Assembly: GCA_003345595.1 (NCBI GenBank)
Contig: PRDI01000050.1
Span: 1-58,866, forward strand
Source: Candidatus Thorarchaeota archaeon
GTDB taxonomy: Archaea > Asgardarchaeota > Thorarchaeia > Thorarchaeales > Thorarchaeaceae
Length of the DNA: 58,866 nucleotides
Direction of reading: 5' to 3'
The notes beneath the pieces were generated by a model that saw only the letters and a list, made by a program, of their open reading frames with translations, was not told the origin of the DNA and searched no databases. Positions 31,436 to 52,601 of this stretch are shown here, one piece after another. A program made the translations under genes and the position numbers. Each line of letters opens with the position of its first letter. The stretch's first letter is position 1.

Positions 31436-34400
31436 CTATTCCTCCCAGTCAATCGGCATTGTCTGTATCAGGCTTCTCAGTTTCCTTCTGACTGCAAGTC
31501 CAAGAATCGACACAATCCCTGTTTCCGCGACGACATATGTTGTGCCTGCGTCCGTCTGTATCAGCATGATGGCGTTCCTGGCATAGAATACTAAGGGCTC
31601 GGTATGTGACATGACGATTGGAAGACCAGAGAGTGTGACCTTAAGCCTGTACGTACCTTCTTCGACCGGCAGGAATCCTAGCTCTACCTCTCCATGGTCT
31701 GAAACCACGGAAACCCATGTATCCATGGTTCTATTGCTGGGTGCGAAGAGCGTGATATTGAGAATTCCTCGCCATTCCGCTGTCACACCGATGACTGTCG
31801 AGATCACTGTCACGGAGCCGCCAAGTCCCTGGTACAATGCGGGTTCTTCTCGGAACTGAATGGTTACGACAGGGACCAGCACCAAGTTGGCTGTCACTGT
31901 GCAAGGTGCTAGAAGATGCGAGCCATTGTAGGAAGCCAGGATTGTATAATTGCCGGCGAACAGCCCTTTCAAGGTCAGACGAGCGGTGCCCCTACTGTCT
32001 GTTGTGACGACCTCTGTTGACTCAAAGGTACTGTTCATTGTGAAGATAATTGACACATTGGTGCCACTGACTCTTCCTGCCTGACGGGTCAGAGTAATCG
32101 ACAATTGAACCACGTCATCACAGTTGACAGGGCTTGGAGCATTCAGCTCTATCCACGTTTCGTACCTTGTCAGTGTCACAATCACAGCGGCTGTCCAATT
32201 GAAGTATGTGCTGCCTTCCACAACAAGACCGAGCGAGTAGTTGCCTGTCTGTGAGGGAACCCACTCTACATGGATGCCTCCTCCAACCACTGCGACAGCG
32301 GTCCGATTTGTGAGGGGGCTTCCGTAGACCTCTCTTCCATCGGGAGCATAGAGGCTGACGTATGCGAGGAGCCCGGTGGTCACTTCGCCAAGAGAGTCGA
32401 TGACAATAAACTCGACAATGTGTGTTCGCCCTATGATGCCTGATAGCGACTGGCTGGTGACACTGATATTCGTTTTGGCTGTCACATAGAACACTACAGA
32501 GGCATTGCAGCCGAGCCACAGCCGAGAGTCAACGACGGACGCGTTTAATGAATAGCGGCCAACACTGAGGCCTCTCAAGGATATGCTCAGGAGAGATCCA
32601 TTGATGGAAATCCGATCGATCAGCTTGACAGTGCCTTCGGGGCCTCTCAAACTGAGAGATGGACTCAAGACGTCGATGGGCAGGCTCAACCTACATTCAT
32701 CGAGAACATGAAGCGCGATTACAGTATTGTCCGCTCTGTCAATGTGGTCGGGACATTCGATGCTCAGGCCTGTTATTCCTGTGGCCCATAATGCCACAGC
32801 ACTCTCAGTTGGGAGATAGTGCGTGGTACCCAAGAAGCTGACAACAACTGTGAAGTTGCCCATTCTTGAGAGAGTAACGTTGAGCCATACGGGTCCTTGG
32901 CCGGTTTGAATGACATTACCGACTGACATGAGTCCGCCAATCTGATGATAGATCTCGAACTTCATGCTGAATCCTTCCATGGGTGTGCTCTGTGAGTCAC
33001 ATAGCAGAAGGAGAAGACAGGCTGGGTTTCTCACTGCCACGATGTCATCAGAGTTCGTCAACTCGATAGTCAGAGTGGTCCCAAGCATTACGTCGATTTG
33101 GGTCGTTGTGCTGACTGGCAAGTAGACTCCAATGCCCCTGAATCTGACTTCCAGGTTCCAGACCCCCAGCTGTTCGATAGTCACACTCCAAGTCACATAG
33201 CCCGTCGTATTGCTCTGGGCCTGAATGGGACCGATCGCACTGCTGCCCGGTCCATCTAGTAGCATCTCCAGAGCTCTTCCTGAGAGGGGCACACCTCCAT
33301 CATCAAGAAGCAATGCGACAACGATTAGAGTTCCGCCAACTTGCAGCTGACGGTCTTTGACAGTTGTCTCAAGTATTGTGATGGTGTAGACTGTGTGAAT
33401 GCTCGAGTCGGAGAAGGGGCGAACAGACACCGACCCGGCGCACGAAATCTCAACGGTGTATAGACCTGCTAGATCGGGTTTGAAGGGCACTACAGCAATT
33501 CCGCCGTAGATCGGTACTGTGATTGAAGATGAAAGGGCACCCAGTCTAACCTGTTGCCCAAAGGGATCATAGAGTTTCACCACGACATTGACTGAATCGA
33601 TTGGTCTTCCCAATTGATCACTCAATGCAATTGTGATGTTGGCAAGACGATTGGAGCATGCAGGTGCCGGTGTGAAACTGACCGCGACTTGGCATCCCGT
33701 CGTGACTGTGAATTGCTCTTGCGTGTCGCAGCGTAAGAGATACTCGTCCGGAGTCGGCCCGACTTGCAGGGTCAATATGCCGTGGGCGTGACTCGCCGTG
33801 TAGACTGTTCGAGCGACACCTGACCCATTAGTCAGAGTTTCTATGCTCCACACAGGCACAAGGTCGACACCCAAGACGACGAAACGCACTGATATGTCAC
33901 GAACTTGACCCGATGATAACAACACGTAGACTAGGGTCACATTGTCGAATAGACTGACCTGTTGCGGTGCAAGAGTTGTTCTTCCGCTGGCGACCTCCAT
34001 GATTGAAACTTGACCCGTGACAGAGCTCGCATAGTAATAGACATCACCGGGATGCATCAGTTTCAATGTGACGAGCCCGCGGACAAGAGGAGTCACACAG
34101 ACAGACAAGGGAATATAATCACTCCTCACCTGATCTTCGAAGATCACTGTGCCGTTCTGTTCAACTGAAAAGAGGAGAACGCGGCCTGGAACATGATTGC
34201 CTTGAGAATCGAACAGACTCAGGTTGACGCATAGCGCCTCTCCGGCTAATGACAAAACTGGATGTTGCAGGACTGGGTCTGTTACTGTGTAGACCCTTTG
34301 AGGCTCTGACCGGCTCACGTGCCCGTTGAGCCCATCTCCCAGAAACGTTGCATTGATCACAAAGTCGCCAATGGAGTTGAAGTCGTACACCAAGGTGCAC

Positions 34401-37400
34401 TTGCCGGCGGAGCCAGTGGTCTTCAGAGAGTAGACAAGGACTGAACCGTCTGCCGCACTCAATGTCACTGCTATCTCGCCGCCGAGAATCGGATTCCCTG
34501 CGTAGTCTGATAGTGTAACGACGACACCCACTGCTGAACCCTGCATAACAGGCTGACCAGGGGTCATGAGATCCATTATGGTCCTGCCAAGGACCGTACG
34601 TTCCACCACGGTCGATGTTTGAAGAAGCCACTCCTGAGCAGGGAGTGTGGCATTGACCAGAAGATACCCTGGTCTGGAAACGACAAGCCTGATTACAAGG
34701 GTTCCATCAACAGAAGTTGTGTTAGTTGTCGTGAGTATAGGTTCTCCGTCTAACGAGGCAACTACTGTCAGCGTGACTCCAATGAGAGCCGATTGGTTCT
34801 GTCCATTTACTCCTATAGTGACTATGAAGACATCAGGAGCTTCTCTTTCGAGAGGCAGTTCGACCTCCAGATGCGCCGACTCGACGACTCTGACCTCTAT
34901 TGTTGAGTCAGCTGACTCATACCAGTCTTGACGAGCGCAGGCTGCCAAGATCGTGTTGTCGCCCCTCGTGACCGGCGTCCAGAGAATCCGCATGGACCCA
35001 TCATCAGTCACACCACTGGTTTCCAGGTCGAGTGCACCCCAGCTGTTTCTCACTGTCAGAGTGAGAATGAGGCCTGACACGTTTCTTCCTAGGTGATCTG
35101 AAACAACAATCACGATCCAGCCGACTTCGTTCACTCGTAGACTCCCGATCGTCGATATAGTGAGTGTCAGTGGGACTCTGAGTTCGAATTCAAACGAAGC
35201 AGATGCAGATCCTCTGGACGGAGTCGAATCGCAGACTGCCGCTAACGTATATAATCCTGCAGTGCTGCCCGACCACTGGAGGGACACATAACCAGTGGAG
35301 TTTGTGTACAAGATTTCTTGTAGTATGATTGTGGAAGGAACGAAAGTGAGCATAAGGAAGACTTGCCTATTACCGACAGCTGTTCCTTTGGAGTCTGTCA
35401 CGCGTACCCAGAGGTTCCATGTGTTTCCCACCAAGGTTTCATGACCGATGCCTCCGACCGTGATGTCAGTCTTGGACCATGACATCAATCCTGCTCTTGC
35501 GAATGACTGAAGAAGCATCCGGGATGTGTAGAACTCTGCGTCCAGCATATAGGCTCCATTGTCGGCGAGCATTATCGTCACCGAGATGTGTCCCGTGGAA
35601 TTCGTAGTGAGTACCGTGTCCATCAGTATGTTGAGTGATGGAGTCATTACTGTAATGTGCACGGAGTAACCTGAGAGTGAATCTCCTGATGCTGTGGACA
35701 GTCTGCATGCGACGCTCACGCTGCTGTACTGGTCTTGGACTGCAGGACTCATCCAATCCAAGACTGTGTTCTCATACACTCGAATGACGCCATTAGCGTC
35801 TGATTCCATAAGACTGCCGTTTCCTCGGAAGAGAAGTGAGTATGTGAAGTTGCCTCGGCGCTGCGGAGTCCAATACGAGGGATTGCACGATGTCGTGCTT
35901 TGGTGAATGACCTCCCCGGTCGCACTCAGGACAATGAGGGTGACTTGTTGGAATTCTATTCTGGTATCATTGACAGTGTATTGAAGCGTCCAGTCTATAC
36001 CAATGACTTCCGATACATTCCCACTGACAAGTTCAGGGGCTGTAAGACGGGTAGAAACGGGCTCGTATATGGTGATTCTGTCTTGCAGCACGAGATTCGA
36101 ACAATAGAGTCTTGATACAGTCACAGTTAGGTTGTGTGTCCTTGTTGTGACTCCACTCGTCGGGATAGAGAACGCGAATGGTGACTCACTCACATACTCC
36201 CATTGCTGGTAGTCGGGCGGGTCGCCAAGTGTGAGTGTAATCTGAGACTGTCCGACTGGCTGGCCCGTGTCCAAGGCCCAGTCCAGAGTGCCATTGAGGA
36301 GTTGTCCTGCCAGCACTGTTATTGTTTCCAAGTTCAAGTGGCCCTGAAGCACTCCAGACACCTTGACAGGAACACAGTCGAATCCCCTCGAAGAACCGAA
36401 GTCGCAGATAATCACGGAGATGTTCCAGTGACCCAGAGCATGTTCGCTGTCGGGCACAGGCACAGTAATTGTGTCCTCGTTCGCGACATTCTCGAAGAGC
36501 CACCATGCTTCGAAGGTCTGTGCGAGCACAGTATGCGTGCTGGACTGTGAAACTATTGAGACGCCTACGCTAAGGCTTCTGCCAGCCTCGACGGTGTCAA
36601 ATGCTGTTGCTTCAATTGTGTTGATTGACGAACTCCGCACACGAGTGCGCAGACCGAGCGTTGAGACCATCTCAAACACGCCTGCAGTGTACACTGGCTG
36701 CCAGAGTTCAGTCGAGTTGGCCCAACCCGATGACAAAGGTTGCGCTCCAAGCGAATTGAGGACCATGTCTGCGTTGACAACGTTCAAGTTGGCCGAGAAA
36801 CCTGACGCGTTTAGAAGAGCAAGAGTTGCAACATCTCTGCTGAGCGCCCAGAGATCGTTGTACTGTATCCTTGATTCAATCGTCGCCGCCAGTTCCTGAG
36901 CCATCTCGCTGCTCAGCACGCCCAGTCTGATAGCGGTCCGCGTGGACAGCCAGTCAATCGCTGATTGCTGGCCAGCGAACGGCCTCAAGGTCCATCCTGT
37001 TGTGGACCAGTACCCGGACGCATAGCTGGCAGCGACGGATGACTCCAGGCTCGCTCTGTAAGGCACCGCATCAAGCGAGTCCAGCAGATAGAACGCCTCA
37101 ACCGCAGCGGCGGTGTACTGCATATGGGCGGTGCCGGCCGTTGTCGCTGCCTTGAAGTGCCCCGTGCTGCTTTGAGATTGAGCAAGATACGACACAGTGG
37201 ATGACACGACACCCGATGTCAACTGGGCGCCGAGCGCAGATGACATGGCGACTCCAAAGTACTGAGTCCACACGCTCTGCATCCTGTACTGGGTGGGTCC
37301 GTACTCGAGCGCAGTCACTGCGGTGACGCTACTCGGATACTGCAGCCATCCAACCAGAGAGTCAGCATACCCCCTTGCAAGGACATAATTAACAGATCCC

Positions 37401-39265
37401 TGTGCATGCGACATCCTAGATGCCACTGAGAGCCAATGACTCCAAGTGAGGGACGGGATAGGCTCCATCGCCTCGAAGCCTACGGGAGTTTTTGTCAGAC
37501 TGACATAGTTGATTATGCCGGCAGCCATCGCACCTGACTGCTCTCCAAGAGCGTTCAGGCAGCGAGCTGCACAGGATGTGGGGGAGGACTTGGCCACAGA
37601 GTCCGATGCTGCGACTGTCAAACCGAAACCACCAGACTCGAGCTGGTTGGAAGCCAACCAGGCCAGGCCCGTCGCCTTGCGCCCCGGGTCTAGAGTGCCC
37701 ATGACAGCCATCGTGGTCAGCGCAGATGTGGTACCTGTAACAAGTTCCCCTGCACCAGTCAGGATTTCGTCATAGGATCCGTCCTCGTTCGACGTTCGAG
37801 TGAGTATCCAGCTAGTGAGCTTCAGGGGATCGTGATGGGTCTTGCCAATGGCTTGCAGTGATGTAATGTACTGCGTTGCATAGGAGTTCCTTGCGGCAGT
37901 GCTATCGGGTTTCTCTCCTACACCACCCCAGAGATCAGGATCCGGCGTATCCGCCGCATCTATGACACATGCCCGGAGCCATGACTCAAGAGTGCTTACA
38001 TCGATGCATGCGACACAACCAGCGGATGCCAGAGCCTCAAGAACAAGGTGTGTGCTTGTTATATGATTGCCGAATCCTCCTGCCGGGTCTTGGCGTATGC
38101 TCAGATAACTCGCGAGTTCGGTCACGTTGTACGTCGTCGCGAGGTCCATTATCGAGACCAGCCAGAGTCCCTGTGCTGTGCTCTGAATACTGACCGAACC
38201 TTCACTGACCGAGCTGGCGAAACCTGCTTCAATCCCATAGTCAACATAGAGACTGTCCAGGAAATGATCAATGAACACAATGTGTTGCGATCGCCACTCA
38301 TACCATACCGATTGATTCGTAGCCGACCTGACTGATTGAACCGCATAATATGCGGCCTTCATTGTAGGTTCGTGAAGGTAGCAAAGTCCACCAGCGAACT
38401 GGTTGTTCTCAGGGACCTGTAGTCTGCCTATCGTTTGTGATGTTGAGCTTTCCTTGAGAGAACTTGCATAGGCAACGACGTTGACAAAGAGCCCCCGACC
38501 TTGGTCAGTTAGGTCGGTTGGGTTCTCTGGTCCGTACAGGAAGACATCTAGCGGGTATGAATCGTAACGCAATGCCGAAAGATGTGCTGGGGAATCGCGC
38601 CCAGTCAGTTCGACTATCCGGGAGAGTTCTCCCTGAACTGCGTCCACAGGAATTAGGGTTGTTGGCTCGCTCGTGAGGCGGGCGGAAACGTTGAGAGAGA
38701 CTGGACTTCTCATGAAGGGCGCAGACTCATAGTCGTATGAGACGAGTAGGTGTTGCGAGACTGGTGCCACCAGATGTGGTTCGCTCGTGCCCTTAAGCCG
38801 ATGAAGAACCCATGCCGCACGTCCAGTTAGTATGAGACATGAATCATACGCGATAAGCGTCTGGATGAACAGGTCTGGAAGCAGAGACCCGTTATCAGCT
38901 CCAGTACTTGCATCAAGGATTACGACTGGGGCGTTCTCTATGATAGCATCGTGGGCGAGGATCTCGTCAACAGTTGAGGTGTGACTAGCGACTCCTGAAT
39001 TGTTCAGAAACCGACTCCACTCTGCTGCCCTTGCCGGAATTGACGCCCCCAGCATTTCGATGACGAGGTATGGTGTTGGGTTGACACGTGTGCCGGGGCC
39101 GGATGCAACATCATGCTGCGCTCTTGCATTCGACAGCGGTGTTGACTCCAAGATGCCAGTTGTCGCTTCTTTGGCTTCTAGGGGGCTGGTGGGAAACCAG
39201 CAGAGAGCAGAACCGCAGGTGGCGAGTATGACAAAGACCATTGCCAGACGACGTGCCTCTATCAC
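31436..39265 (-). CDS. Giant (2609 aa) surface protein: prenyltransferase/squalene-cyclase-like alpha-alpha toroid repeats followed by many Ig-like repeats and a C-terminal membrane anchor
   Basis: AAGGAGG SD plus GTG; signal peptide; repeats YLSIRQDPAGGFG, WILTRTSNEDGSY, WLASNQLESGGFG, YLAQSQSSTGHF; ~95-aa beta repeats with TNSTG / G.Y.L.A.F.G...Y..S motifs; C-terminal hydrophobic segment plus RRK. Confidence 0.8.
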   Translation of the reverse strand: MIEARRLAMVFVILATCGSALCWFPTSPLEAKEATTGILESTPLSNARAQHDVASGPGTRVNPTPYLVIEMLGASIPARAAEWSRFLNNSGVASHTSTVDEILAHDAIIENAPVVILDASTGADNGSLLPDLFIQTLIAYDSCLILTGRAAWVLHRLKGTSEPHLVAPVSQHLLVSYDYESAPFMRSPVSLNVSARLTSEPTTLIPVDAVQGELSRIVELTGRDSPAHLSALRYDSYPLDVFLYGPENPTDLTDQGRGLFVNVVAYASSLKESSTSQTIGRLQVPENNQFAGGLCYLHEPTMKAAYYAVQSVRSATNQSVWYEWRSQHIVFIDHFLDSLYVDYGIEAGFASSVSEGSVSIQSTAQGLWLVSIMDLATTYNVTELASYLSIRQDPAGGFGNHITSTHLVLEALASAGCVACIDVSTLESWLRACVIDAADTPDPDLWGGVGEKPDSTAARNSYATQYITSLQAIGKTHHDPLKLTSWILTRTSNEDGSYDEILTGAGELVTGTTSALTTMAVMGTLDPGRKATGLAWLASNQLESGGFGLTVAASDSVAKSSPTSCAARCLNALGEQSGAMAAGIINYVSLTKTPVGFEAMEPIPSLTWSHWLSVASRMSHAQGSVNYVLARGYADSLVGWLQYPSSVTAVTALEYGPTQYRMQSVWTQYFGVAMSSALGAQLTSGVVSSTVSYLAQSQSSTGHFKAATTAGTAHMQYTAAAVEAFYLLDSLDAVPYRASLESSVAASYASGYWSTTGWTLRPFAGQQSAIDWLSTRTAIRLGVLSSEMAQELAATIESRIQYNDLWALSRDVATLALLNASGFSANLNVVNADMVLNSLGAQPLSSGWANSTELWQPVYTAGVFEMVSTLGLRTRVRSSSINTIEATAFDTVEAGRSLSVGVSIVSQSSTHTVLAQTFEAWWLFENVANEDTITVPVPDSEHALGHWNISVIICDFGSSRGFDCVPVKVSGVLQGHLNLETITVLAGQLLNGTLDWALDTGQPVGQSQITLTLGDPPDYQQWEYVSESPFAFSIPTSGVTTRTHNLTVTVSRLYCSNLVLQDRITIYEPVSTRLTAPELVSGNVSEVIGIDWTLQYTVNDTRIEFQQVTLIVLSATGEVIHQSTTSCNPSYWTPQRRGNFTYSLLFRGNGSLMESDANGVIRVYENTVLDWMSPAVQDQYSSVSVACRLSTASGDSLSGYSVHITVMTPSLNILMDTVLTTNSTGHISVTIMLADNGAYMLDAEFYTSRMLLQSFARAGLMSWSKTDITVGGIGHETLVGNTWNLWVRVTDSKGTAVGNRQVFLMLTFVPSTIILQEILYTNSTGYVSLQWSGSTAGLYTLAAVCDSTPSRGSASASFEFELRVPLTLTISTIGSLRVNEVGWIVIVVSDHLGRNVSGLILTLTVRNSWGALDLETSGVTDDGSMRILWTPVTRGDNTILAACARQDWYESADSTIEVRVVESAHLEVELPLEREAPDVFIVTIGVNGQNQSALIGVTLTVVASLDGEPILTTTNTTSVDGTLVIRLVVSRPGYLLVNATLPAQEWLLQTSTVVERTVLGRTIMDLMTPGQPVMQGSAVGVVVTLSDYAGNPILGGEIAVTLSAADGSVLVYSLKTTGSAGKCTLVYDFNSIGDFVINATFLGDGLNGHVSRSEPQRVYTVTDPVLQHPVLSLAGEALCVNLSLFDSQGNHVPGRVLLFSVEQNGTVIFEDQVRSDYIPLSVCVTPLVRGLVTLKLMHPGDVYYYASSVTGQVSIMEVASGRTTLAPQQVSLFDNVTLVYVLLSSGQVRDISVRFVVLGVDLVPVWSIETLTNGSGVARTVYTASHAHGILTLQVGPTPDEYLLRCDTQEQFTVTTGCQVAVSFTPAPACSNRLANITIALSDQLGRPIDSVNVVVKLYDPFGQQVRLGALSSSITVPIYGGIAVVPFKPDLAGLYTVEISCAGSVSVRPFSDSSIHTVYTITILETTVKDRQLQVGGTLIVVALLLDDGGVPLSGRALEMLLDGPGSSAIGPIQAQSNTTGYVTWSVTIEQLGVWNLEVRFRGIGVYLPVSTTTQIDVMLGTTLTIELTNSDDIVAVRNPACLLLLLCDSQSTPMEGFSMKFEIYHQIGGLMSVGNVIQTGQGPVWLNVTLSRMGNFTVVVSFLGTTHYLPTESAVALWATGITGLSIECPDHIDRADNTVIALHVLDECRLSLPIDVLSPSLSLRGPEGTVKLIDRISINGSLLSISLRGLSVGRYSLNASVVDSRLWLGCNASVVFYVTAKTNISVTSQSLSGIIGRTHIVEFIVIDSLGEVTTGLLAYVSLYAPDGREVYGSPLTNRTAVAVVGGGIHVEWVPSQTGNYSLGLVVEGSTYFNWTAAVIVTLTRYETWIELNAPSPVNCDDVVQLSITLTRQAGRVSGTNVSIIFTMNSTFESTEVVTTDSRGTARLTLKGLFAGNYTILASYNGSHLLAPCTVTANLVLVPVVTIQFREEPALYQGLGGSVTVISTVIGVTAEWRGILNITLFAPSNRTMDTWVSVVSDHGEVELGFLPVEEGTYRLKVTLSGLPIVMSHTEPLVFYARNAIMLIQTDAGTTYVVAETGIVSILGLAVRRKLRSLIQTMPIDWEE

Positions 39266-39380
39266 TGCCTAACCTCCTTCTTCGCTCTAGAGAGAAGCGC
39301 AGCATCGCGACCGAGAACAGTCTCTGAACATTGTTCTAGACTGTCGCTACTGGTGGCTGAATGAGTTCCTGCGTCTTGCT

Positions 39381-40031
39381 TCACATTACCACCCCTACGA
39401 TTTGAGTGTAGAAGAGAGCAAGTGCTGCAATCACGAACACCAGCTCCAATACCCCGCGTTCCCCGTGTTTCTTGAGAGATTCTCCGAGTAGTATGATATC
39501 GCCGCTGCGGATGCAGCTATTGAGTAGTACACTCATTGCCACGTACCAACATAGCATTACTATCGGTACACCCATGAGGAGCACAAACGGTATGAAGAGA
39601 AGCGAGAGGGACACGAAGACAGACAAGACCGAACTGGCAAACAGTGCGCTGAGGAGAATGGCTACGTGTGGCGGCTTTCCGACCTCGAGGAAGAGGTTGA
39701 ACTCCGCATAGGTACTACCTCCGCCCACTCCTTCTATATCGATTTTGAAGAGGGCACAGACGACATAGCGGATCAAAGTGTTCACAATCATGCCTGGTGC
39801 GAACACAATAGTCAGCACAGAGAGTAGGGTATTACGTGTCCATGTGTGAAATGCGCGCTTCCTGCCTGTGAGCAGCAGGACACTCCTCACAAGAGTGGCT
39901 GCTACTATCACTAGAGGTGTTATTCTCAACGAGAGCTGAAGGCTCGCCAGCAGTACGATTACAATGTCTGATTGCACTATCGTTCCCAGCGTGTTACGTG
40001 ATCTGAATCGGTATGGAGTACCTATTGTCAA
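39381..40031 (-). CDS. Polytopic membrane protein, possibly a degenerate M50-like metalloprotease homologue
   Basis: About 5-6 hydrophobic helices; FAPGMIVNTLIRYVVCALF resembles the PG.++HELSH...C..+ motif with the His/Glu ligands lost. Confidence 0.6.
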   Translation of the reverse strand: MTIGTPYRFRSRNTLGTIVQSDIVIVLLASLQLSLRITPLVIVAATLVRSVLLLTGRKRAFHTWTRNTLLSVLTIVFAPGMIVNTLIRYVVCALFKIDIEGVGGGSTYAEFNLFLEVGKPPHVAILLSALFASSVLSVFVSLSLLFIPFVLLMGVPIVMLCWYVAMSVLLNSCIRSGDIILLGESLKKHGERGVLELVFVIAALALFYTQIVGVVM

Positions 40032-40215
40032 ACATAGATTAGTTTGTCTAAGGAACGAGAGGGATAATATCAGGCTGCGAAACCGTCATTGTAGCAGACA
40101 AATGATGCGCCCTATGCTAAATATGGTTATGAGACTTCCTTGCGCCTGACGTGGCATCCATGTGCCTCATAACTGCTGCTCAGTGCAATAAATTCATAAG
40201 TATGCAGAAGCATTC

Positions 40216-42090
40216 ATGGTGGCCACCATGTCCAAGAAAGCTCTTGTTACAGCTGACTGGCTTGGAAAGGGGCGAGAGACAGACGACGTCACGTTGATCA
40301 GACAGATCATACGGAATGTTTCTGCCGGAAACGGGGTATGTGACAAGGCTCTCTCAGAGCCGAAGTCAGGAGGATCTGAGATCCCGGATTCGCCTATTCC
40401 GCAAGGAAGGATAGATGCTGCTTTGGGTCTCAGCGAAGCGTCTGAGGAAATCGGTGTTTGGGAACGTCCCATTAAGGTGACTGGTGTATCTCTCAGAAGC
40501 CAAATCGAATCTATCATACCGGACAATGTTGAGGAAGGTATGAGAGAGTCACTTGTCTACACCCTGTCTCGGGTGATTGTTGGGAAGTGGCCCCGCTTCG
40601 TGGAGTGGCAGCCGTATCTCTCTGGTATCGACTCGGCAAGCGCCGCCCTCATCACGCTTCATTGCATTAGTCGAGCACTCAAGACGAGACCGGACTGGAT
40701 GAAGGTCCTATGGCGAATGAGCATTGAGAAACTGAAGTCAGAGCTGCTGACAAGTCTTCTCGGCGACATGACTGGTGATCGCGAGGTTAAGTCGATCATA
40801 GGACTACTCGAGCGGGCTAGGGAAACACTCCGAGAGAAGATACCGAGAGATATGCTCCTCACCAATCGCACAATCGATGATTGGATAGCCATGTTGTCCC
40901 CTAAGTCGAAAGAGCAGGCCGACGTAGATACCATTAGCGAGCTGAGAAACAGGATTGGGGCAGAACTGCTGTCGCTGAGATCCCGCGAAACCTTATGGGG
41001 CGTCCTGACGCTAAGGCCTGATGGTCCAGCCGCAAGTCAAATCGAACCTATGTTGAACAGGCTTCGCGAGAAGATTAACGCACTCGATTATGGGCCAACC
41101 ATAGCTGTCTGTACATATCTCGCCGACTGCCAGATTCCCGGCAAGCCGACTGCTAGGGAGATCATTGAGGCGACAGGTGCGAGCGGGTGGAATGCTCACC
41201 TGGCACTGGCTCTCTTGGAAACCCTTCTAACAGAGAGGTACATACCTTCAGTCAGTCTTTTGGGGCTGAGATACCGCGTTGTCATATCCACAAGAGAAAG
41301 AGGTGTGCCAAAATCACGAGGCCTTGCCGCCAAGTATCTGCTTCGCGACACGATGTTTCAGAGTGCATCTCTCCACATTGAGCCCATAGACTCACCAGGC
41401 CCGAATGAAGCAGCTGATCCAGCAAGCATCTTCGACGTCGTCGTCGACTCCGAACTTGTTTCTGTGCGTCTTGATTTGTATGACGCGATGCGATCAGTGT
41501 GGAAAGAACCTTGGTATGAGCCAAAGATTCCCCCAAGACTCTCACCTCATTGCCTGATGAGGTCCTCTGTTTCGGCAAGCGGAAAGATACTGGTGCCAAG
41601 GCCGCGCGATCTGCAGGCGCTAGGTGTACTTTGGGCCTTCAGAGGGATGCGACCTGCGAGGAATTGGATGATGAGATCGATTCACTTCTCCCAGAGCACA
41701 CTGCGACATGCCCTCCCAAGAGTACTTGAGAGCGGTCTGCTGACTCTTCTCTATCATCCAACACTTGAGTATTGCGCGCTCCCAGAGGGCCTGCTGGTGG
41801 CCACGAGGAAGATGACCAGCAGGAGAGCGGACTCACTCGCGACATGGATTACGAGGGCATTCCCATATTGCAGACTCCTGACAAGCAGACCGGCCGGTCA
41901 GGCCGCTGCTGTGGTGCGAGTTCCTGCGCTCAAGAGCGACACTGCCAGAGCGATAATCGAAGAAAAGCTGAAGGAGATGGACTGTGAGTATGTCGTTGCA
42001 GGCATTGAGTCGTGTAGATCGTACTATATGACTGTGCTCAACCGCATTTACGACTCGCGCACCAAAGCATGGGCTGATCCATGGTTGTGA
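40216..42090 (+). CDS. Large hypothetical protein with putative tandem wHTH/Lrp-like modules
   Basis: HTH-like PTAREIIEATGASGWNAHLAL followed by YIPSVSLLGL (Lrp-type linker); second module LQALGVLW...FSQSTLRHALPRVLESGLL..YHP.LEYCAL. Confidence 0.65.
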   Translation: MVATMSKKALVTADWLGKGRETDDVTLIRQIIRNVSAGNGVCDKALSEPKSGGSEIPDSPIPQGRIDAALGLSEASEEIGVWERPIKVTGVSLRSQIESIIPDNVEEGMRESLVYTLSRVIVGKWPRFVEWQPYLSGIDSASAALITLHCISRALKTRPDWMKVLWRMSIEKLKSELLTSLLGDMTGDREVKSIIGLLERARETLREKIPRDMLLTNRTIDDWIAMLSPKSKEQADVDTISELRNRIGAELLSLRSRETLWGVLTLRPDGPAASQIEPMLNRLREKINALDYGPTIAVCTYLADCQIPGKPTAREIIEATGASGWNAHLALALLETLLTERYIPSVSLLGLRYRVVISTRERGVPKSRGLAAKYLLRDTMFQSASLHIEPIDSPGPNEAADPASIFDVVVDSELVSVRLDLYDAMRSVWKEPWYEPKIPPRLSPHCLMRSSVSASGKILVPRPRDLQALGVLWAFRGMRPARNWMMRSIHFSQSTLRHALPRVLESGLLTLLYHPTLEYCALPEGLLVATRKMTSRRADSLATWITRAFPYCRLLTSRPAGQAAAVVRVPALKSDTARAIIEEKLKEMDCEYVVAGIESCRSYYMTVLNRIYDSRTKAWADPWL

Positions 42091-45438: not shown

Positions 45439-47191
45439 CAAGGCCCCACATTCTCTCTGCCTCTTTCGGGTCTGATACAGAAACTTCTCTCTCAGGAACT
45501 GGACCTGCCGAGGACTCGGATGGGCGTCCACTCATCCCTGCGATTCTAGCACTAACGATGTCTGCAGCTCGCTTGGGAGGTTCGAAGCCATCAGGATTAT
45601 CGCTTGTTTCGGCATCGGAACTCATGTCGTGCTCGCTAGACGTGAGGGTGCGAGTTGCTGATGTTAGATCTGGTTCACCTGGCCGGGAGTTCCTGCGTAT
45701 GGACTCGAAGAAGTCTGATGTGGCCTCATGTCCTCTAAGAGCTGTAGAGGGTATTCCCTCAATTGTGTGCACAGCATCATCTCTCGTCGCAAGGACCGGG
45801 ACTGGAGTTGCAGTTTCTTCTTCTTCGGGCTGTGTCAGCATCTCGCCCAGCCTTTCCGCCGTCTCAGACATGGCCCTAATGTTCATCAGGTCGTCAATCG
45901 CGTTCTTGACGTCGAAACGAAGGACACCGATATCATAGAGTGAGTTGTTGAGTAGACCAATGTGACTCACGGCCTCCCCGAATGTCATGGGATTAGACAA
46001 GTGTGCAGTCAGTCCTACATACATCAGAGCGAGCATCTCCTCATTCGCATCAGACCCTAGGTGTCGCAGTAGGCAGAGGAATCTCCCCAGTCCCATGTCT
46101 GAGGTTCTGATTGGCGTGCTTTCATCAGGCTCTTCAGCTGGGGCGAACCTTACACACTCGTCGAGCACAGAGCATGCCAAGCTCACTGCATGATCCGTAT
46201 TGCCAGACTCTAGGGCCTCTCCCGCGGCTGCCATTAGCGGTGTCACTGTGAAATGAAGATCCCCTACAAGCCGCAATGCCTGCTCGTTCTCTGAGACCGC
46301 CTTCGATATTCTACTCCAGTCACCCAAAGCAGACACATGCGAGCGTTCATGTTTCACCTTGGATTCGAAGAGTCGGAGTTGCTTTCTTGAGACTGCCAGG
46401 AGGAAGGCACCAGCGATACCCCCTGCGGCTGTCAGCAGAAGTGGTAGTAGAAGCCCACCGGATCCGGTAATGGCCAATTCAATACAGGTCAGCGCACCAG
46501 CCACGGAGAAGACAGAGGACAAAACACCGTACCATCCTCGCTCCACTGCGTTCTGAAGTCCGCTCCACTTGTCGCCAGCTATTCCCCTCCTTACGTCTGG
46601 AACTATGGACCTCATATCACTCTGGCATGCAAACGAAAACTCTTCCGGCCTCACTATTCTTTTCTGGTCTGTTAGCCAGCCGAGATCATTAAGAGGACGG
46701 ACACCTTCGGCCACAACGTAGACTGTTCTCGTTTCGTGCATCATGGAGCTTCCCTTCTCATTCAATGAACGAAGGAGCTCCAGTCGAACACGTCCCCAAG
46801 GTGTGGCAATCGCTCTCTTTCTTACAAGTCCATCGAGCCCGACATCGGTAAGTATCCTCGCCAAGGGCCTGGTCACGGCATCTAGCACTTCGGCTTTCAG
46901 GCCAAGATCGCTCTTACCAGAGCGGCAAGAGCGCATATCGAGTACAAAGACGACAGCAAGGTGAACACCCCCTGTACCTGGGATTGCTTGTAGCCGTACT
47001 CCCACGGTAATGCCACTTGGGTATTGGCAGGTGTGGTGTTGAGTGCTGCGCAGGACGCCAATGATGTCCTGTTCCTTCGATGGTTCTTTTGGCACCCGAC
47101 TCCCCCCAGCTGAGGCAGCCGGAATCTCTGTTCTCTTCTCAGGCAGACTCATTGTGCTCATATCCTCCATTGTCACTACCGGTTGGTCCAT
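45422..47191 (-). CDS. Hypothetical protein with central TM hairpin, helical C-terminal domain and acidic disordered tail
   Basis: Two hydrophobic helices (WYGVLSSVFSVAGALTCIELAI; LLLPLLLTAAGGIAGAFLLAV); start may be a downstream Met. Confidence 0.7.
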   Translation of the reverse strand: MDQPVVTMEDMSTMSLPEKRTEIPAASAGGSRVPKEPSKEQDIIGVLRSTQHHTCQYPSGITVGVRLQAIPGTGGVHLAVVFVLDMRSCRSGKSDLGLKAEVLDAVTRPLARILTDVGLDGLVRKRAIATPWGRVRLELLRSLNEKGSSMMHETRTVYVVAEGVRPLNDLGWLTDQKRIVRPEEFSFACQSDMRSIVPDVRRGIAGDKWSGLQNAVERGWYGVLSSVFSVAGALTCIELAITGSGGLLLPLLLTAAGGIAGAFLLAVSRKQLRLFESKVKHERSHVSALGDWSRISKAVSENEQALRLVGDLHFTVTPLMAAAGEALESGNTDHAVSLACSVLDECVRFAPAEEPDESTPIRTSDMGLGRFLCLLRHLGSDANEEMLALMYVGLTAHLSNPMTFGEAVSHIGLLNNSLYDIGVLRFDVKNAIDDLMNIRAMSETAERLGEMLTQPEEEETATPVPVLATRDDAVHTIEGIPSTALRGHEATSDFFESIRRNSRPGEPDLTSATRTLTSSEHDMSSDAETSDNPDGFEPPKRAADIVSARIAGMSGRPSESSAGPVPEREVSVSDPKEAERMWGLDDAEE

Positions 47192-49319
47192 GACCTCGGG
47201 CGAGGTCCAAGGCCTGTATCATGTTCTCTGCTATCGTCACTACTGGAAGCAGTCCTCCTAGACGACCCACTGCATGAATAGAACGAAGCAACCAAGTTGT
47301 GGTTTCAATGAGCCCATTGATGTCTCCTTCGTGGAAACCAGATCTCTTTGCCAATTCAGAGATTGGTGCACGGTTCGATGTGATAGCGTCTATGAGTTGG
47401 TCATAGGACTCCCCTAGTGATCCACCGCTCTCAATACCGACCAGGTGTCTCAACAACCAGAGAAGCGAGGTCTTGTCTTCCGTTTGAGGCAAAAGAGCCA
47501 GCATCTCCCGAGCCGTAGGTATGCTGAGATACAGTCTGTTGATGAGGCGACCCAGCCTGGTAGGCTTCAGCTTCCCGGCGGTTCCTCCCTCGACAAGACC
47601 TAGCTTCAGAAGGATTCCGGCTGGGCTCGATTCACTGAGAGAGAGTGGTATTACGTAATCTGCAATAGCACCAAGTTCTGTGGCCGCTGAAGCTCCTAGC
47701 AGCAGAAGGTGTGAACACAACATGCCATGCGCATCGAGAGACCTGCCACAGGAGCATTGTGGTCCCTCGAGACATCCGGAGAACGAAGTGCGTGACGAGA
47801 AACGACAAGCATACTGCGAGCCGTCCCAGTCAGTGACAATCGCGCCGACCACGTTGTCTCCTTTCTCCCGGATGTCGACTGCTCCGAATGAACCCTGTTT
47901 TGCCGCTCGAACAGATTCCGGCAGGGCATGTCGTTCGATTGCCGCCTCGGCTGAGATTTCGCCTAGATTGAGCAGTCTCATGGGTGATTCTGCGTCTTGC
48001 ATAGCGCAGTGAATGAGGTACGAATCGTTCAGCAAACTATCTTCAACTTCCTCAAGTGAAGTCTCACCCTGTTCGTCAAGCGCGACTAGTAGTAGCTCTG
48101 TCATGGAGGAAGGAGTATTGAGCACGCTTCTTACCCTATCATACCTTGGGACAAGTAACACCTTTCCAGATTCTTCTACTTGGTCGAAGTACCTCTTCTC
48201 AGCCTCTTCGGCCTCACCCTCACTCCCTGTAAGAACGACTCCGAATCCCACTTTGTCATGGTTTGGTCTCCCGGCCCTGCCCAGCATTTGATGGAGCCGG
48301 TTTGCACTCAGCAGTTGTCCATGTTCCTTAGGTGTCTTCACGTTCGTGACCACGACAGTCCTTGCAGGGAGGTCCATACCTGCAGCGAGCGTCGTTGTCG
48401 CACAGACTACTCTAACCCTTCCAGTCTGGAACAAATGCTCGACGAGGCCGCGCGCGTTGGGCCCAAGGCCAGCATGATGAAAAGCTGTGCCGTCGTGTAG
48501 AACGGTTCTGAGTTCGGGCGGTAAGCTTACGCCCCAGTTCTCCACTGACCCGAGTTCGCTATCGAGTCTAGCCTTCTCCCCCTCTGTGAGCTGTCGGCCC
48601 ACGTCTGCAGCCAGCCGAAAACACTCCACCTCCGCCTCTCGACGAGTCCTCTGAAATACAATCGCTTGTCCATTGCTCTGTATGGTTGTCAAGACGAGCT
48701 CTCTGACAGTCTTGTCCTTGTTGCTCGTAGACAGGACTTTGCAGTGAAGTGGCACGGGTCTCTCATCAGATTCTATGAGCTCACACTGCAACCACTCTGA
48801 GAGATCCAATGGTGTTCCCACGGTGGCTGAGAGAGCAATCAGCTGAAGATCGTGAATCAGGCGTTTCAGTCTGATGATTGCACTCTCAAGCCGGGCTCCT
48901 CGCCGGACCTCTCCGAGGTTCTGAATCTCGTCGATGACTACAGTTCCCACGTCCAGAAGCCATGGGGCTCCGTGCCGAAGCAGAGAGTCTGCCCTTTCGT
49001 AGGTTGTGACGATGATGTCGCGGTCAGACAGTTCATTACCTTCATTCTGGTAATCGCCCGTGCTAAGTCCGACCCTGATGCCGTGACTTTCGTACCGTTC
49101 TCTAAGGCCATTCCAGACTTGAAGACCAAGCGCCCGCAACGGTACTAGATATAGGCCCTTCTTCCCTGCTATCACGGACCTGAGGAGTGCCATCTCCCCG
49201 ACAAGCGTCTTGCCTGACCCGGTGGGACTACATACCATGATGCTCTTTCCGTCAAGCAACCCCTTATCGATGGCAGATTTCTGGACTCCTCTTGGTGTGA
49301 CTCCAATGGAGTCCAGCAT
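47139..49319 (-). CDS. Hel308/Ski2-like SF2 DNA helicase with inserted SWIM zinc finger
   Basis: SPTGSGKT, PLRAL, TYE, DEIQ, LSAT, HHAGL, TTTLAAGMDLPA, QMLGRAGRP; CSC-x9-CSH insert; T.LGRLI.RLYL ratchet helix. Confidence 0.9.
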   Translation of the reverse strand: MLDSIGVTPRGVQKSAIDKGLLDGKSIMVCSPTGSGKTLVGEMALLRSVIAGKKGLYLVPLRALGLQVWNGLRERYESHGIRVGLSTGDYQNEGNELSDRDIIVTTYERADSLLRHGAPWLLDVGTVVIDEIQNLGEVRRGARLESAIIRLKRLIHDLQLIALSATVGTPLDLSEWLQCELIESDERPVPLHCKVLSTSNKDKTVRELVLTTIQSNGQAIVFQRTRREAEVECFRLAADVGRQLTEGEKARLDSELGSVENWGVSLPPELRTVLHDGTAFHHAGLGPNARGLVEHLFQTGRVRVVCATTTLAAGMDLPARTVVVTNVKTPKEHGQLLSANRLHQMLGRAGRPNHDKVGFGVVLTGSEGEAEEAEKRYFDQVEESGKVLLVPRYDRVRSVLNTPSSMTELLLVALDEQGETSLEEVEDSLLNDSYLIHCAMQDAESPMRLLNLGEISAEAAIERHALPESVRAAKQGSFGAVDIREKGDNVVGAIVTDWDGSQYACRFSSRTSFSGCLEGPQCSCGRSLDAHGMLCSHLLLLGASAATELGAIADYVIPLSLSESSPAGILLKLGLVEGGTAGKLKPTRLGRLINRLYLSIPTAREMLALLPQTEDKTSLLWLLRHLVGIESGGSLGESYDQLIDAITSNRAPISELAKRSGFHEGDINGLIETTTWLLRSIHAVGRLGGLLPVVTIAENMIQALDLARGHGPTGSDNGGYEHNESA

Positions 49320-49341: not shown

Positions 49342-51702
49342 TCAGAAACCGCCGATATCTTTGGAGCCCTCCTTGGTTTCTGTCTCTCGGAGCAGCATTG
49401 TGCCCTTCATCGTGATCCTGTAGTTTGTGTATGAAACGCCAGCATGGAGTTCATGTCCACGAAGAATGAGACCTGCCCTCTCAAGTCGCGTTATCACACC
49501 CTGGACATCGTCGCTTGCGCTTCCTCCGCTTGAAACGATGAACCTCTTGACTGCCTCTTCGGTCAGCGGCTCATACTTCATGAGTAGACGTAGAACGCGC
49601 AATGCGAGGTTTCTCTCTCCTCCTGCGACACAATCCAGAAGAGAGTCGGGACCGTGGGGTGACTTTACCGTGTCAGCTCGGAGTACTTGAGCGAGTCTGC
49701 GAATCATCTCGTCCTCGGTCAGCGGACGAATGTCAGACTGAGGAAGGCTGAGCTTGACGGGCATGCAGGTTTGCGAGCCACCGCGTATCATGAGCGCCAC
49801 TCCGGGTTCCATTACCCTGAGGAAGGAAGTTTCCCGCATACTCTGACGTGACTTGCTGTGAATACCCGTGGCAATCACGCTGAGACCCAGAAAATCTATC
49901 GCAACCTTGAGGTCCATTCCCTCTCTCAGCTTGAGCGAAACAAAGGATGAGAGGACTCCGAGAGCTCCGGATGACATGTCTGCAGGATGGTCGAGGCCGA
50001 CAATAATCGGCCCCCTCCTCTTGAGCGTTCGCAGCAGTGTTTCGGACCAGACATCTCGGTTACCGTATTGCCTGTTGCGTACTCTCAAGTTGTCTGGGCT
50101 ATCGAGAATCACGATCAGATTCTCATCATGAGTGAGGCCAGCAAGCTTGACGCATAGGAGATCCCATGCGTATCTGTCCAATGGAGGCGACCCAAGGGAA
50201 AGAAGCAGGACTGCAAGAGGCACTTCTGTGAGGACACTCATGGGCGCAGTCTGACACCCGTAGAATGCTCTTGCACCTGAACCTTGGTGCAGCATGCGAA
50301 TTGCGTTGATCCCAATCAGAGAGACCTTGGAGTGGCCCTCTACAACAGGAATGTTTGAGTCTGGAGTGTTTTCAGTGTCAGACGAATCTCCTAGGTGAAC
50401 ATCAGCGACAGTCGCATTACCAAGTGCCACAGCCTTGTTGAGCGCAATCTCAAGATCGACTGCCCCTCGCAAGTCCATGCCGCAAAGTACCTCAAGTGTT
50501 GTCAGTAGTTGCGGAACATATTCGCTTCGAGGAGCCCCGTCTGGATCGATTGGGTTCAGGACTAGATTCCTGCCCAGCTCCAAGCTGATGCCTTGCTCTG
50601 AGAGTGCTGCGATATCCACGGCCTCGCGATCACCAGTAGCAAAGAGAACGCGCTTGCCAGAATCGAGGAGCCTGTCGATGATGACCTTCAACAGCTCTTT
50701 TCTCTCTGACTGACCTCCCCCACAGATGAGCAAGCCTCGTTCAAGATCGCTGTCTGCGAGTCCAACCGATGGGCCCAACCTTAGCGTTTCAGGATTGATA
50801 GACACTCCAAGAGCGTAATCTGCCTCGTCTGATCTGATCGGAGACACAAACTCGGCTGGTACGCTTGCGCCCACCTCTGGTGCGAGTTCGCTTGGCAGCT
50901 GGACTAGCCATTCAGAAAGCTCTGATCCAGCTGCATAGAAGGATGTCAGACCGTGATCGACCTCCACCTTCCTGAAACGGTTACAGAGGCCGTTGGCACT
51001 GACTCTCTGCCACTCGCGCTCCGGTATAGCGGCTCTCATGGCTGACTCGAATCCGGATAGATCCTCAGGTCTCTTGCCATATCCAACAGCTAGGACGCCC
51101 GTACTCCACATGCCGCCTCGTCTTGCCGCATAAGCACCGACGGCATCCTTGGAGAGGTTATCCAAGAACGAGGCCAATGAATCTGATAATCGGTCTTTCT
51201 GCAAGATGTTCTCGATCTTCTCAGGCTTCATCGAAACAGACACGAACAGACCCATCGAGTCATCCATTGCTCTGATGAGTGCACCGAGGTCTCCGACAAG
51301 ATCAGATCCTGCCGAGTCCAGTCTCATTGCAGCAGCAAACTTCCGTCCCCTTACGTCTCTCACTTGTACTGAGCCCTCGACAAGTGAGAACCCGACATCA
51401 CCTGTACGTACGCTCTTCCATTGGTCGTTTACTGATTGTCTGGATCCTGACGACCCCATCGTGCGGGTCACAATGATGATGCTGATGAGCACGGTCGCTG
51501 TGCCAACAAGCACAACGTCGGGATACCATATTCCCGTAACAACTGTCACCGTTGAAACCAATGCAACCAGTGATAGTGAGTGTCCGACTTTCCTGTTGTC
51601 CCACCTGATTTCTGTGCTAGGGGTCGCTCCCTCTCCTTGCCGAGCTCTGTCCTTGAATGGGTCGAAAGCGGGCTCGGGACCCAGCACAAGTCGTCTACTC
51701 AT
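49342..51702 (-). CDS. Membrane-anchored HerA/VirB4/FtsK-like protein with degenerate ATPase motifs and C-terminal winged helix
   Basis: Two N-terminal TM helices; RGLLICGGGQSERK (Walker A position), LGRNLVLNPID, LIVILDSPDNL (Walker B position), LRTLKRRG.IIVGLDHPADM (R-finger/TQ position), FLRVMEPGVAL; C-terminal wHTH ending YRITMKG. ATG 51702 follows GGAGGAGG. Confidence 0.68.
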   Translation of the reverse strand: MSRRLVLGPEPAFDPFKDRARQGEGATPSTEIRWDNRKVGHSLSLVALVSTVTVVTGIWYPDVVLVGTATVLISIIIVTRTMGSSGSRQSVNDQWKSVRTGDVGFSLVEGSVQVRDVRGRKFAAAMRLDSAGSDLVGDLGALIRAMDDSMGLFVSVSMKPEKIENILQKDRLSDSLASFLDNLSKDAVGAYAARRGGMWSTGVLAVGYGKRPEDLSGFESAMRAAIPEREWQRVSANGLCNRFRKVEVDHGLTSFYAAGSELSEWLVQLPSELAPEVGASVPAEFVSPIRSDEADYALGVSINPETLRLGPSVGLADSDLERGLLICGGGQSERKELLKVIIDRLLDSGKRVLFATGDREAVDIAALSEQGISLELGRNLVLNPIDPDGAPRSEYVPQLLTTLEVLCGMDLRGAVDLEIALNKAVALGNATVADVHLGDSSDTENTPDSNIPVVEGHSKVSLIGINAIRMLHQGSGARAFYGCQTAPMSVLTEVPLAVLLLSLGSPPLDRYAWDLLCVKLAGLTHDENLIVILDSPDNLRVRNRQYGNRDVWSETLLRTLKRRGPIIVGLDHPADMSSGALGVLSSFVSLKLREGMDLKVAIDFLGLSVIATGIHSKSRQSMRETSFLRVMEPGVALMIRGGSQTCMPVKLSLPQSDIRPLTEDEMIRRLAQVLRADTVKSPHGPDSLLDCVAGGERNLALRVLRLLMKYEPLTEEAVKRFIVSSGGSASDDVQGVITRLERAGLILRGHELHAGVSYTNYRITMKGTMLLRETETKEGSKDIGGF

Positions 51703-52015
51703 GCTTTGCCTCCTCCTCAACCGGAAACCAGCTGAAGTCTTGCCTCTGAAGGATCTCGAGAACTCTCCTGAACCGCTCTGCGTACACAGGCCCTCCGCCA
51801 GCCATCACGAGCGTCCTGTTACTGGTGAGCAAGAGCTCGGGCATGTTTTCACCATGTGAAGGTGCACCGTAGGCAATGAGCACAGGACTCCGGGACAAGA
51901 CTATCCATTGGTAGCCGTGTCCTTTCTGTAGTGCATCCATGAGCGTCTGAGGTTTGACCCCTCTCGGCAGGTCTACGCCGGTTCGATCACTTTGAGGACT
52001 GCTCATCCTGTTCAA
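51695..52015 (-). CDS. Hypothetical protein (106 aa)
   Basis: AAGGAGG SD; overlaps both operon neighbours. Confidence 0.62.
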   Translation of the reverse strand: MNRMSSPQSDRTGVDLPRGVKPQTLMDALQKGHGYQWIVLSRSPVLIAYGAPSHGENMPELLLTSNRTLVMAGGGPVYAERFRRVLEILQRQDFSWFPVEEEAKHE

Positions 52016-52601
52016 TTCCTCCTTTGACTGCCCTCATGATATCGTTGAGCCCTGCGTTCTCGATTGGAATGTGGGGGTAAGCAGTCCTCATTGCCTTCTC
52101 AAGTATCATCACGTCAGCAGACAGGTCTTTCGACAGCTTCTGCGCTATCGCAGAGGCATTGCCGACTCTGAGGCAGGTCCTGACAATCATCATGCCGATA
52201 ATTGTTGGCCCCTGCCCGAGGGGTCTGTAGAGAAGAAATCTCACCGAGCCGTTCTTACTCTCAGACAGCCTCGCGTGCATTGCCTGTAGCACTCGGGAAG
52301 CAGCATGGCTCAGGTCTATTCCAAGAGGCACACTAGTCATAAGTCTGGCTCCGAATGCCTCAAGTTTCCACGTCCTGACAAGGGCCAGTACTCCATACCT
52401 CTCGTTCCACAGCATCATCGGCGTCCCAGATGACCGCTTAGCTACGACTATCAGGACCGTTGTGAGCAGGAGTCCGATTACTGCTTGCTGCGCTTGAACA
52501 AGCCGCTGGCTTCCAGCCAATAGTGAAAGGAACCAGATAGCTAGCAGAACCGAGGCAATGATCCATCCATCAGACAATGGTTCATTGTGCATCAATACCA
52601 T
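51987..52601 (-). CDS. Membrane protein (2 TM) with soluble alpha/beta domain
   Basis: Two N-terminal hydrophobic helices; GGGAGG SD; overlaps the XPD stop. Confidence 0.7.
   Translation of the reverse strand: MVLMHNEPLSDGWIIASVLLAIWFLSLLAGSQRLVQAQQAVIGLLLTTVLIVVAKRSSGTPMMLWNERYGVLALVRTWKLEAFGARLMTSVPLGIDLSHAASRVLQAMHARLSESKNGSVRFLLYRPLGQGPTIIGMMIVRTCLRVGNASAIAQKLSKDLSADVMILEKAMRTAYPHIPIENAGLNDIMRAVKGGIEQDEQSSK

Follow-up and report, generated by a model that had tools for sequence, protein, structure and literature searches.

A candidate VirB4-derived pseudo-ATPase family encoded among recombination-type genes in Thorarchaeota and other Asgard archaea

A gene of Candidatus Thorarchaeota archaeon (assembly GCA_003345595.1, contig PRDI01000050.1), located at 49342..51702 on the reverse strand (-) of the 58,866-nucleotide (nt) stretch analysed here (positions 1 to 58,866 of the contig; the window), encodes a protein of 786 amino acids (aa), counted from the ATG at 51702. 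The protein appears to have retained the body of VirB4, namely a membrane hairpin, an N-terminal domain and a P-loop C-terminal domain with its insertion, while losing the chemistry of ATP hydrolysis and gaining a winged helix. With moderate confidence, we infer that this non-motor descendant of VirB4 acts as a membrane-anchored cytoplasmic platform for the enzymes encoded in its operon. VirB4-derived pseudo-ATPase family is the best name for it and its relatives, as it carries none of the catalytic motifs of VirB4 in intact form and matches none of the VirB4 sequence models. An earlier reading of the window, made from the sequence and its open reading frames (the original prediction), had described the product as a membrane-anchored HerA/VirB4-like pseudo-ATPase fused to a C-terminal winged helix.

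VirB4 is, to our knowledge, the one component shared by all type IV secretion and conjugation machines, which are regarded as dependent on its ATPase activity. Strong selection on the whole VirB4 body, together with an invariant arginine in place of the catalytic lysine, implies a conserved task for the VirB4 scaffold without ATP turnover. No published description of the family was found in the literature on Thorarchaeota or Asgard archaea with VirB4, HerA or DNA import. The family spans many Asgard lineages, the closest archaeal kin of eukaryotes, and is always accompanied by extra recombination enzymes. It offers a testable entry point to how Asgard cells handle or exchange DNA at the membrane, a matter relevant to how recombination and sex arose in eukaryotes.

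Gene and domain organization

The open reading frame is intact at window positions 49342-51720 (-), and the longest version starts with the TTG at 51720, from which the residues of the protein are numbered here. The start at ATG 51702, given in the original prediction, is supported by the Shine-Dalgarno-like GAGGAGGAGG 7-8 nt 5' of it, by an 8-nt overlap with the stop of the upstream gene, and by the orthologues, all of which begin at the equivalent methionine in an alignment of 36 sequences. The gene is single-copy in its own genome and has 108 full-length homologues.

An AlphaFold2 model was built from the same 36-sequence alignment, with a predicted local distance difference test (pLDDT) score of 74. 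Residues 49-90 are modelled as two long hydrophobic helices (49-65 and 67-90) which, together with the hydropathy peaks, define an N-terminal membrane hairpin at residues ~50-87 (51460..51573; this and all other parts of the gene lie on the reverse strand, (-)), preceded by a short tail. The hairpin region is hydrophobic in all 36 orthologues and poorly conserved in sequence. An alpha/beta domain of VirB4 type follows at residues 105-260 (50941..51408), and residues 300-665 (49726..50823) form an alpha/beta domain of the VirB4/HerA P-loop class with a helical insertion at ~398-500. After a variable spacer (residues 666-700), residues 701-789 make up a helix-helix-helix-hairpin-helix module.

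Between the two alpha/beta domains lies the best-conserved segment of the protein, residues 261-299 (50824..50940), which consists of an acidic helix and a PGEF..PIR stretch. At least 90% conservation is seen in 19 of its 39 columns, including the invariant W271, Q274, E278 and E282 of the acidic helix, yet its pLDDT is only 41-55; the segment may fold only against a partner. The C-terminal winged helix (residues 701-782; 49375..49620) has the element order H-H-H-beta-beta in the model and is similarly constrained, with 35 of 82 columns conserved at 90% or more.

Structural comparison places the protein with VirB4. In a Foldseek search of the PDB, full-length TrwK/VirB4 of plasmid R388 ranked first (E 2e-14), ahead of Sulfolobus HerA, TdpAB, SIR2-HerA and TrwB. 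The top row in VIA was the C-domain of Thermoanaerobacter VirB4 (4ag6_A; Z 27.9, root-mean-square deviation 2.8 over 323 residues), with the DndH C-domain (Z 25.8), Sulfolobus HerA (4d2i, Z 24.7), TrwB (Z ~22), the defence HerA rings (Z 20-23) and FtsK (Z 14-15) below it. The full-length TrwK alignments in VIA span model residues 101-675. Further, residues 100-286 matched CagE_TrbE_VirB and VirB4_TrbE_N models of the ESM-Atlas over ~170 residues (template modelling (TM) score by query 0.62-0.67), and residues 701-790 matched PadR, ArsR, MarR and HTH_45 winged helices at TM 0.76-0.78. The HAS barrel of HerA is absent, and the alpha/beta N-domain matches VirB4 N-domains instead; the protein is therefore VirB4-like rather than HerA-like. 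The predicted layout is that of a VirB3-VirB4 fusion, with its N-terminal hairpin, plus an extra C-terminal winged helix. Thus the fold of the HerA/FtsK/VirB4 class, the membrane anchor and the winged helix proposed in the original prediction are all borne out by the model and its matches; of the double label HerA/VirB4-like, the VirB4 half stands and the HerA half does not.

Sequence models, in comparison, are blind to the family. Neither Pfam, NCBIfam nor PADLOC recognises the protein, and with the threshold relaxed to E 1 Pfam still gave no relevant match for any of the 36 orthologues. The VirB4 models PF03135, PF27097 and AAA_10 and those of NCBIfam match neither the protein nor the 36 orthologues. 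A single-sequence search of solved structures in the PDB gave no match, and a profile search of solved structures gave HerA 8ziq as its sole match (E 2.2). A two-copy complex prediction for residues 255-670, run without controls, scored 0.00 and carries no weight either way on oligomerisation.

The former ATP site

VirB4 ATPases carry a Walker A motif GxxGxGK[ST], a Walker B motif hhhhDE and a sensor glutamine (TQ.P), none of which is intact in the protein. The stretch LLICGGGQSERK (residues 330-341) contains the Walker A site GGGQSERK, the degenerate motif CGGGQSERK occupying residues 333-341 (50698..50724). The Walker B region is LIVILDSPDN (residues 535-544; 50089..50118), and LKRRGPIIVGLDHP (residues 566-579; 49984..50025), which reads LKRRGP....LDHP, replaces the Arg-finger and sensor-Gln motifs. 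The altered motifs GGGQSERK, ILDSPD and LKRRG/LDHP on which the original prediction was built are thus present as quoted.

The alterations follow a fixed pattern among the orthologues. All 36 orthologues share G334, G335 and R340 in the Walker A loop, while the site of the second P-loop glycine (position 339) is occupied by S, D or E and that of the Mg-binding Ser/Thr (position 341) by K, R, M, L, F or H. The few canonical relatives at the edge of detection, P0249 and P0257 among them, carry GTHGSGKT or GSPGKGKS, and DEAH; when all profile matches are aligned to the hidden Markov model of the family, the lysine of their GK[ST] falls on R340 and the threonine or serine on position 341. The Walker B aspartate, D540, is kept in 33/36, and the next residue, the site of the catalytic glutamate, is G, E, S, N, D or T. 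The sensor-Gln position 577 is E, D, N, R or K, and position 567, the counterpart of the canonical Arg finger in the alignment, is variable. R569 and G570 are invariant, as is the structural NP.D motif that follows the second strand, and P571 is found in 34/36. The conserved Arg-loop probably locks the old nucleotide pocket into a single state: it may occupy the pocket itself or retain there a phosphate-bearing ligand that is not turned over.

Selection and distribution

A word-indexed search of ~5.8 billion proteins recovered the 108 homologues, which are ~780 aa long, share 36-82% identity and have intact frames; all named members are annotated as "hypothetical protein" and come from Thorarchaeota bins. 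Pairwise Nei-Gojobori comparisons gave a nonsynonymous divergence (dN) of 0.12-0.16 against a saturated synonymous divergence (dS) of at least 1.7, from which a dN/dS ratio (omega) of ~0.05-0.1 follows. The 36-sequence alignment contains 71 invariant columns, including new ones such as R340 and R569. The original prediction had asked whether the degeneration is kept by purifying selection or whether orthologues have intact Walker motifs, which would imply lineage-specific decay. The omega values, the invariance of R340 and the arginine of most distant relatives answer for purifying selection, and no orthologue with intact motifs was found.

A profile search of 1.84 billion representatives gave 153 proteins, which include, beyond the orthologues, relatives of ~500-550, 750-850 and 1230-1340 aa; the named distant relatives come from Lokiarchaeota, Freyrarchaeia, Sigynarchaeota and "Promethearchaeota" bins. 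Among the ~105 distant Asgard relatives that cover the Lys site, 87 (~83%) have arginine and 5 have lysine there, which indicates that the Arg-loop is an old, shared pan-Asgard character and not the result of local decay. The distant Asgard relatives, too, are encoded near RadA-like (GPAKAGKT), Hel308-like, XPG/FEN-like and RadB-like genes. Beside one of them, an 814-aa Lokiarchaeota protein, a LAGLIDADG-domain protein is encoded two genes downstream (L025:5346-6638), with genes for an XPG-like nuclease and a Hel308-like helicase within the same 14 kb.

A scan of 400 genomes of the phylum found orthologues in 53 of the 85 genomes of the window's family, a lower bound as some apparent absences are assembly artefacts. 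A divergent orthologue occurs in the sole genome of the sister family and distant forms in eight other families. In one genome (G332:C37, L048) the contig ends right at the operon tail, so that the gene seems absent; in another (G368:C1, L049) a scaffold gap of 100 N lies inside the Hel308-like gene and the operon tail is present; a third (G352), seemingly without the gene, retains the 589-aa membrane protein of the operon. These three cases leave unproven the reading of the operon as an optional cassette, which had been drawn from the 53/85 count and from missing Hel308 orthologues. Short-read assemblies seem to break repeatedly inside the operon, and strain heterogeneity could be the cause. 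In a genome of the same genus (G333:C3:602303-604466), the Hel308-like gene beside the VirB4-like gene is in two pieces with one in-frame TGA; a frameshift, a pseudogene or an error of sequencing could each explain this.

Operon and genomic setting

The VirB4-like gene is the ninth of 15 co-directional genes that run from 57971 to 42106 (-) and overlap or abut, with gaps of -110 to +22 nt. Genes 1 and 2 encode unassigned proteins of 258 aa and 155 aa, gene 3 a RadA-like protein (GPARGGKT), genes 4 and 5 unassigned proteins of 152 aa and 208 aa, and gene 6 an XPD-like helicase. Gene 7 (51987..52601 (-)) encodes a 204-aa hairpin membrane protein and gene 8 (51695..52015 (-)) a protein of ~100 aa with no Pfam match, translationally coupled to the VirB4-like gene. 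On its other side, gene 10 (47139..49319 (-)) encodes a Hel308-like superfamily 2 (SF2) helicase, recognised by Pfam and NCBIfam. It is followed by genes for a 589-aa membrane protein (gene 11), a RadB/PhoH-like P-loop protein with GPAGSGKT (gene 12), a 323-aa polytopic membrane protein (gene 13), a second RadB-like protein without a Walker A motif (gene 14) and an XPG/FEN1-like nuclease (gene 15).

This arrangement is syntenic across Thorarchaeota. The operon order is the same in three distant loci (L001, L002 and L027/L044), and the immediate neighbours are kept in 12 more. Orthologues of the ~100-aa gene lie directly upstream in 14 loci, and a Hel308-like gene adjoins the VirB4-like gene in 12/12 further loci. 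In addition, the operon holds one chromosomal position, with the same flanking genes, across distant genera.

Better-scoring copies of RadA, XPD, FEN1 and Hel308 are encoded elsewhere in the genome (Hel308 on contig C49), which makes the operon copies extra, divergent paralogues. A second RadA clade has been noted in some Asgard lineages, without its context (PMC12722695). A canonical HerA is encoded on another contig of the same genome. Within the operon, as the original prediction had stated, no intact P-loop ATPase of the HerA/FtsK/VirB4 class is encoded, and only RecA-family and SF2 Walker A motifs are present.

Comparison with known systems

The closest known body plan is that of VirB4/TrwK (4ag5/4ag6, 7o43, 8rtd), including VirB3-VirB4 fusions, with which the protein has in common the two-domain body and the N-terminal two-helix hairpin. 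It differs in lacking GxxGxGK[ST], the catalytic glutamate, the sensor glutamine and any Pfam VirB4 match, in its added winged helix, and in its neighbours, which are recombination-type enzymes with no recognisable VirB2, VirB6, VirB8 or VirD4 among them.

A structural role for VirB4 that does not depend on ATPase activity has a precedent in the literature, VirB4b of Rickettsia (RvhB4-II), which carries seven substitutions in the nucleoside triphosphate cleft and has been proposed to be a non-powering gate or channel stabiliser (PMC2653234). Like the Thorarchaeota protein, it is a VirB4 homologue retained despite a substituted nucleotide cleft (PMC2653234). Unlike it, VirB4b is bacterial, is recognisable as VirB4 by sequence and is found alongside an active VirB4a in a type IV secretion system (T4SS), with no winged helix or recombination operon.

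In archaea, the VirB4/HerA-like ATPases CedB/CedD of Sulfolobales and TedB of Thermoproteales power DNA import (PMC9905601, PMC11868833). In Ced, part of a VirB4-like N-domain is present in each of two proteins, and CedA and CedA1 serve as pore and pilin (PMC11868833, PMC9905601), while Ted loci often carry Rad50 and HerA-like genes (PMC9905601, PMC11868833). These proteins resemble the Thorarchaeota protein, as far as descriptions of them allow comparison, in being archaeal, membrane-associated, VirB4-derived and linked to DNA exchange or repair. They differ in that a polytopic CedA/TedA pore and a pilin stand alongside them, none of which was recognised here, and in that the ATP site is rewritten in the Thorarchaeota protein.

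FtsK, SpoIIIE and Streptomyces TraB have the same order of membrane anchor, P-loop domain of the FtsK-HerA class and C-terminal winged helix. In FtsK and TraB this winged helix, which forms the gamma domain and the C-terminus respectively, recognises DNA. The motor domain of FtsK, however, matches only at Z 14-15, and the Thorarchaeota protein has a VirB4-type N-domain, no active site and a winged helix that is not basic. With HerA (NurA-HerA; SIR2-HerA, DUF4297-HerA) the protein has in common the P-loop domain fold (Z 20-25); HerA differs in its HAS barrel and its NurA, SIR2 or DUF4297 partners, whereas the motifs of the Thorarchaeota protein are dead.

Proposed function and alternative explanations

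In the mechanism that we propose, the protein would not pump; it would be a platform on the cytoplasmic side of the membrane and hold there the helicases, the recombinase and the nuclease of the operon, and perhaps DNA. Holding would be through the conserved linker (residues 261-299) and the winged helix, which are the likeliest partner-binding surfaces because they are the best-conserved parts, and the energy would be supplied by the SF2 helicases and the RecA-family ATPases. The original prediction had proposed a passive ring or scaffold through which the adjacent Hel308/XPD helicases would pull DNA; the ring form and the passage of DNA are conjectural.

Several observations weigh against this platform. 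Among the 15 operon proteins, Pfam detects no VirB6/CedA-like pore, VirB2-like pilin or coupling protein, so that a transfer apparatus is hypothetical; VirB8 and a relaxase are likewise unmatched, although Pfam would miss T4SS partners as divergent as those of Ced and Ted. The winged helix has a net charge of ~0, its third helix being slightly acidic, and acidity is also seen in the P-loop domain (mean -7). A neutral winged helix of this kind makes protein binding at least as likely as DNA binding, and its charge, as computed from the residues, does not favour direct DNA binding. Finally, the invariant arginine and the kept Walker B aspartate could still bind nucleotide, the description of the site as inert being drawn from motif chemistry.

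A bolder form of the platform, which we hold only tentatively, makes the protein the hub of a pan-Asgard, motor-less membrane apparatus descended from VirB4 for DNA uptake or exchange between cells, a helicase-powered Asgard counterpart of Ced and Ted. Incoming DNA would be handed directly to the second set of recombination enzymes, comprising the RadA paralogue, the RadB-like pair, the Hel308-like and XPD-like helicases and the FEN1-like nuclease.

The residual chemistry of the pocket leads to the first rival explanation, a non-hydrolytic switch in which the Arg-loop and the Walker B aspartate bind ATP/ADP or another phosphate ligand whose occupancy controls assembly or gating of the complex, which would make the site regulatory and more than a dead one. 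The invariance of G334, G335, R340 and NP.D and the retention of D540 are unexpected of a decayed pocket, and the prevalence of arginine at the Lys site among distant relatives points the same way. However, no residue is conserved where the Mg-coordinating Ser/Thr would be, and the second P-loop glycine has become S, D or E; we regard such a switch as unlikely.

Less probable still is a mixed ring, akin to the hetero-oligomer with an active HerA suggested in the original prediction, in which the protein is the regulatory or anchoring half and an active ATPase of the HerA/VirB4 class, encoded elsewhere, is the other. A candidate arrangement of this kind is seen at one distant locus (L026:10001-14931), where an 847-aa relative with a weak PadR/HTH_34 match at its C-terminus directly precedes a 794-aa HerA_C/P-loop_TraG protein with an intact GIPKTGKS; by its motifs, this lineage pairs dead and live P-loop proteins. 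The genome of the window itself encodes, besides the canonical HerA, a 1272-aa protein on contig C49 (L047:5131-8949 (-)) with 3-4 N-terminal membrane segments, a DUF87 match and an intact GATGTGKT, apparently an active membrane ATPase of the HerA/VirB4 class and a putative partner. Against a mixed ring, no such ATPase gene is present in the Thorarchaeota operon at any locus examined, and the canonical Arg-finger position is variable, which would deny the protein the usual means of activating the site of a neighbour.

We assign an equally low probability to an anti-virus or anti-plasmid defence platform, comparable to HerA in SIR2-HerA/Nezha and DUF4297-HerA or to DndH in DndFGH. The structural matches to the DndH C-domain and the defence HerA rings invite this comparison, and the operon encodes two helicases and a nuclease, the helicases matching Hachiman HamB and type IV DinG in PADLOC. 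Those helicase matches are, however, generic for SF2, and PADLOC matches neither the VirB4-like protein nor the unassigned operon proteins that were tested. No NurA/Mre11/Rad50 or defence-effector family of Pfam was found in the operon. The constant chromosomal position with the same flanks across distant genera also argues against defence, the patchiness of the operon being partly an assembly artefact, and the full-length RadA paralogue and the RadB-like proteins suit recombination. That the gene is the remnant of a conjugative element, in decay and functionless today, would account for the loss of all catalytic motifs and has almost no probability, since pseudogene decay is contradicted by the intact frame in 108 homologues, the low omega, the 71 invariant columns and the fixed operon synteny.

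Related proteins and flanking genes

The 204-aa protein of gene 7 may be a relative of the N-terminal part of the VirB4-like protein. Its model (pLDDT 77, m25621d02f999) has a membrane hairpin followed by an alpha/beta domain with the element order three strands, helix, two strands, long helix, strand, helix. Residues 49-250 of the VirB4-like protein have the same order plus a helical insertion, and an LE[SK]AMR[AT]A.P motif closes the unit in both. A comparison by hhalign gave E 0.007-0.03, driven by this one shared motif, and BLASTP found no match between the 204-aa protein and the N-domain. With the 204-aa model as query, Foldseek against the PDB returned only generic ferredoxin-like and YbjN rows, and VIA-wide gave chaperone folds of type III secretion systems and YbjN folds at Z 8-9, VirB4 being absent from the rows listed. 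In the Atlas, the N-part of archaeal DUF87/HerA_C ATPases ranked first (TM 0.52). The 204-aa protein is thus a possible stand-alone paralogue of the VirB4-like N-part, and the pair, if paralogous, would parallel CedB and CedD, each of which covers part of the VirB4 N-domain (PMC11868833).

Some lineages have a short form of ~530 aa with no hairpin and no N-domain, and an upstream gene of 280-325 aa (L042:10779-11756 (-); L041:8531-9379 (+)). One of these upstream genes has a weak match (E 9e-7) to the N-terminal part of the family profile, which suggests split versions of the same protein.

After the operon, window positions 31436-42090 encode a surface-type protein of 2609 aa, a 216-aa gene and a convergent 624-aa gene. 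This trio also follows the operon at L001 and in G332, and the giant gene follows it at L027; the 2609-aa protein may share a functional unit with the operon.

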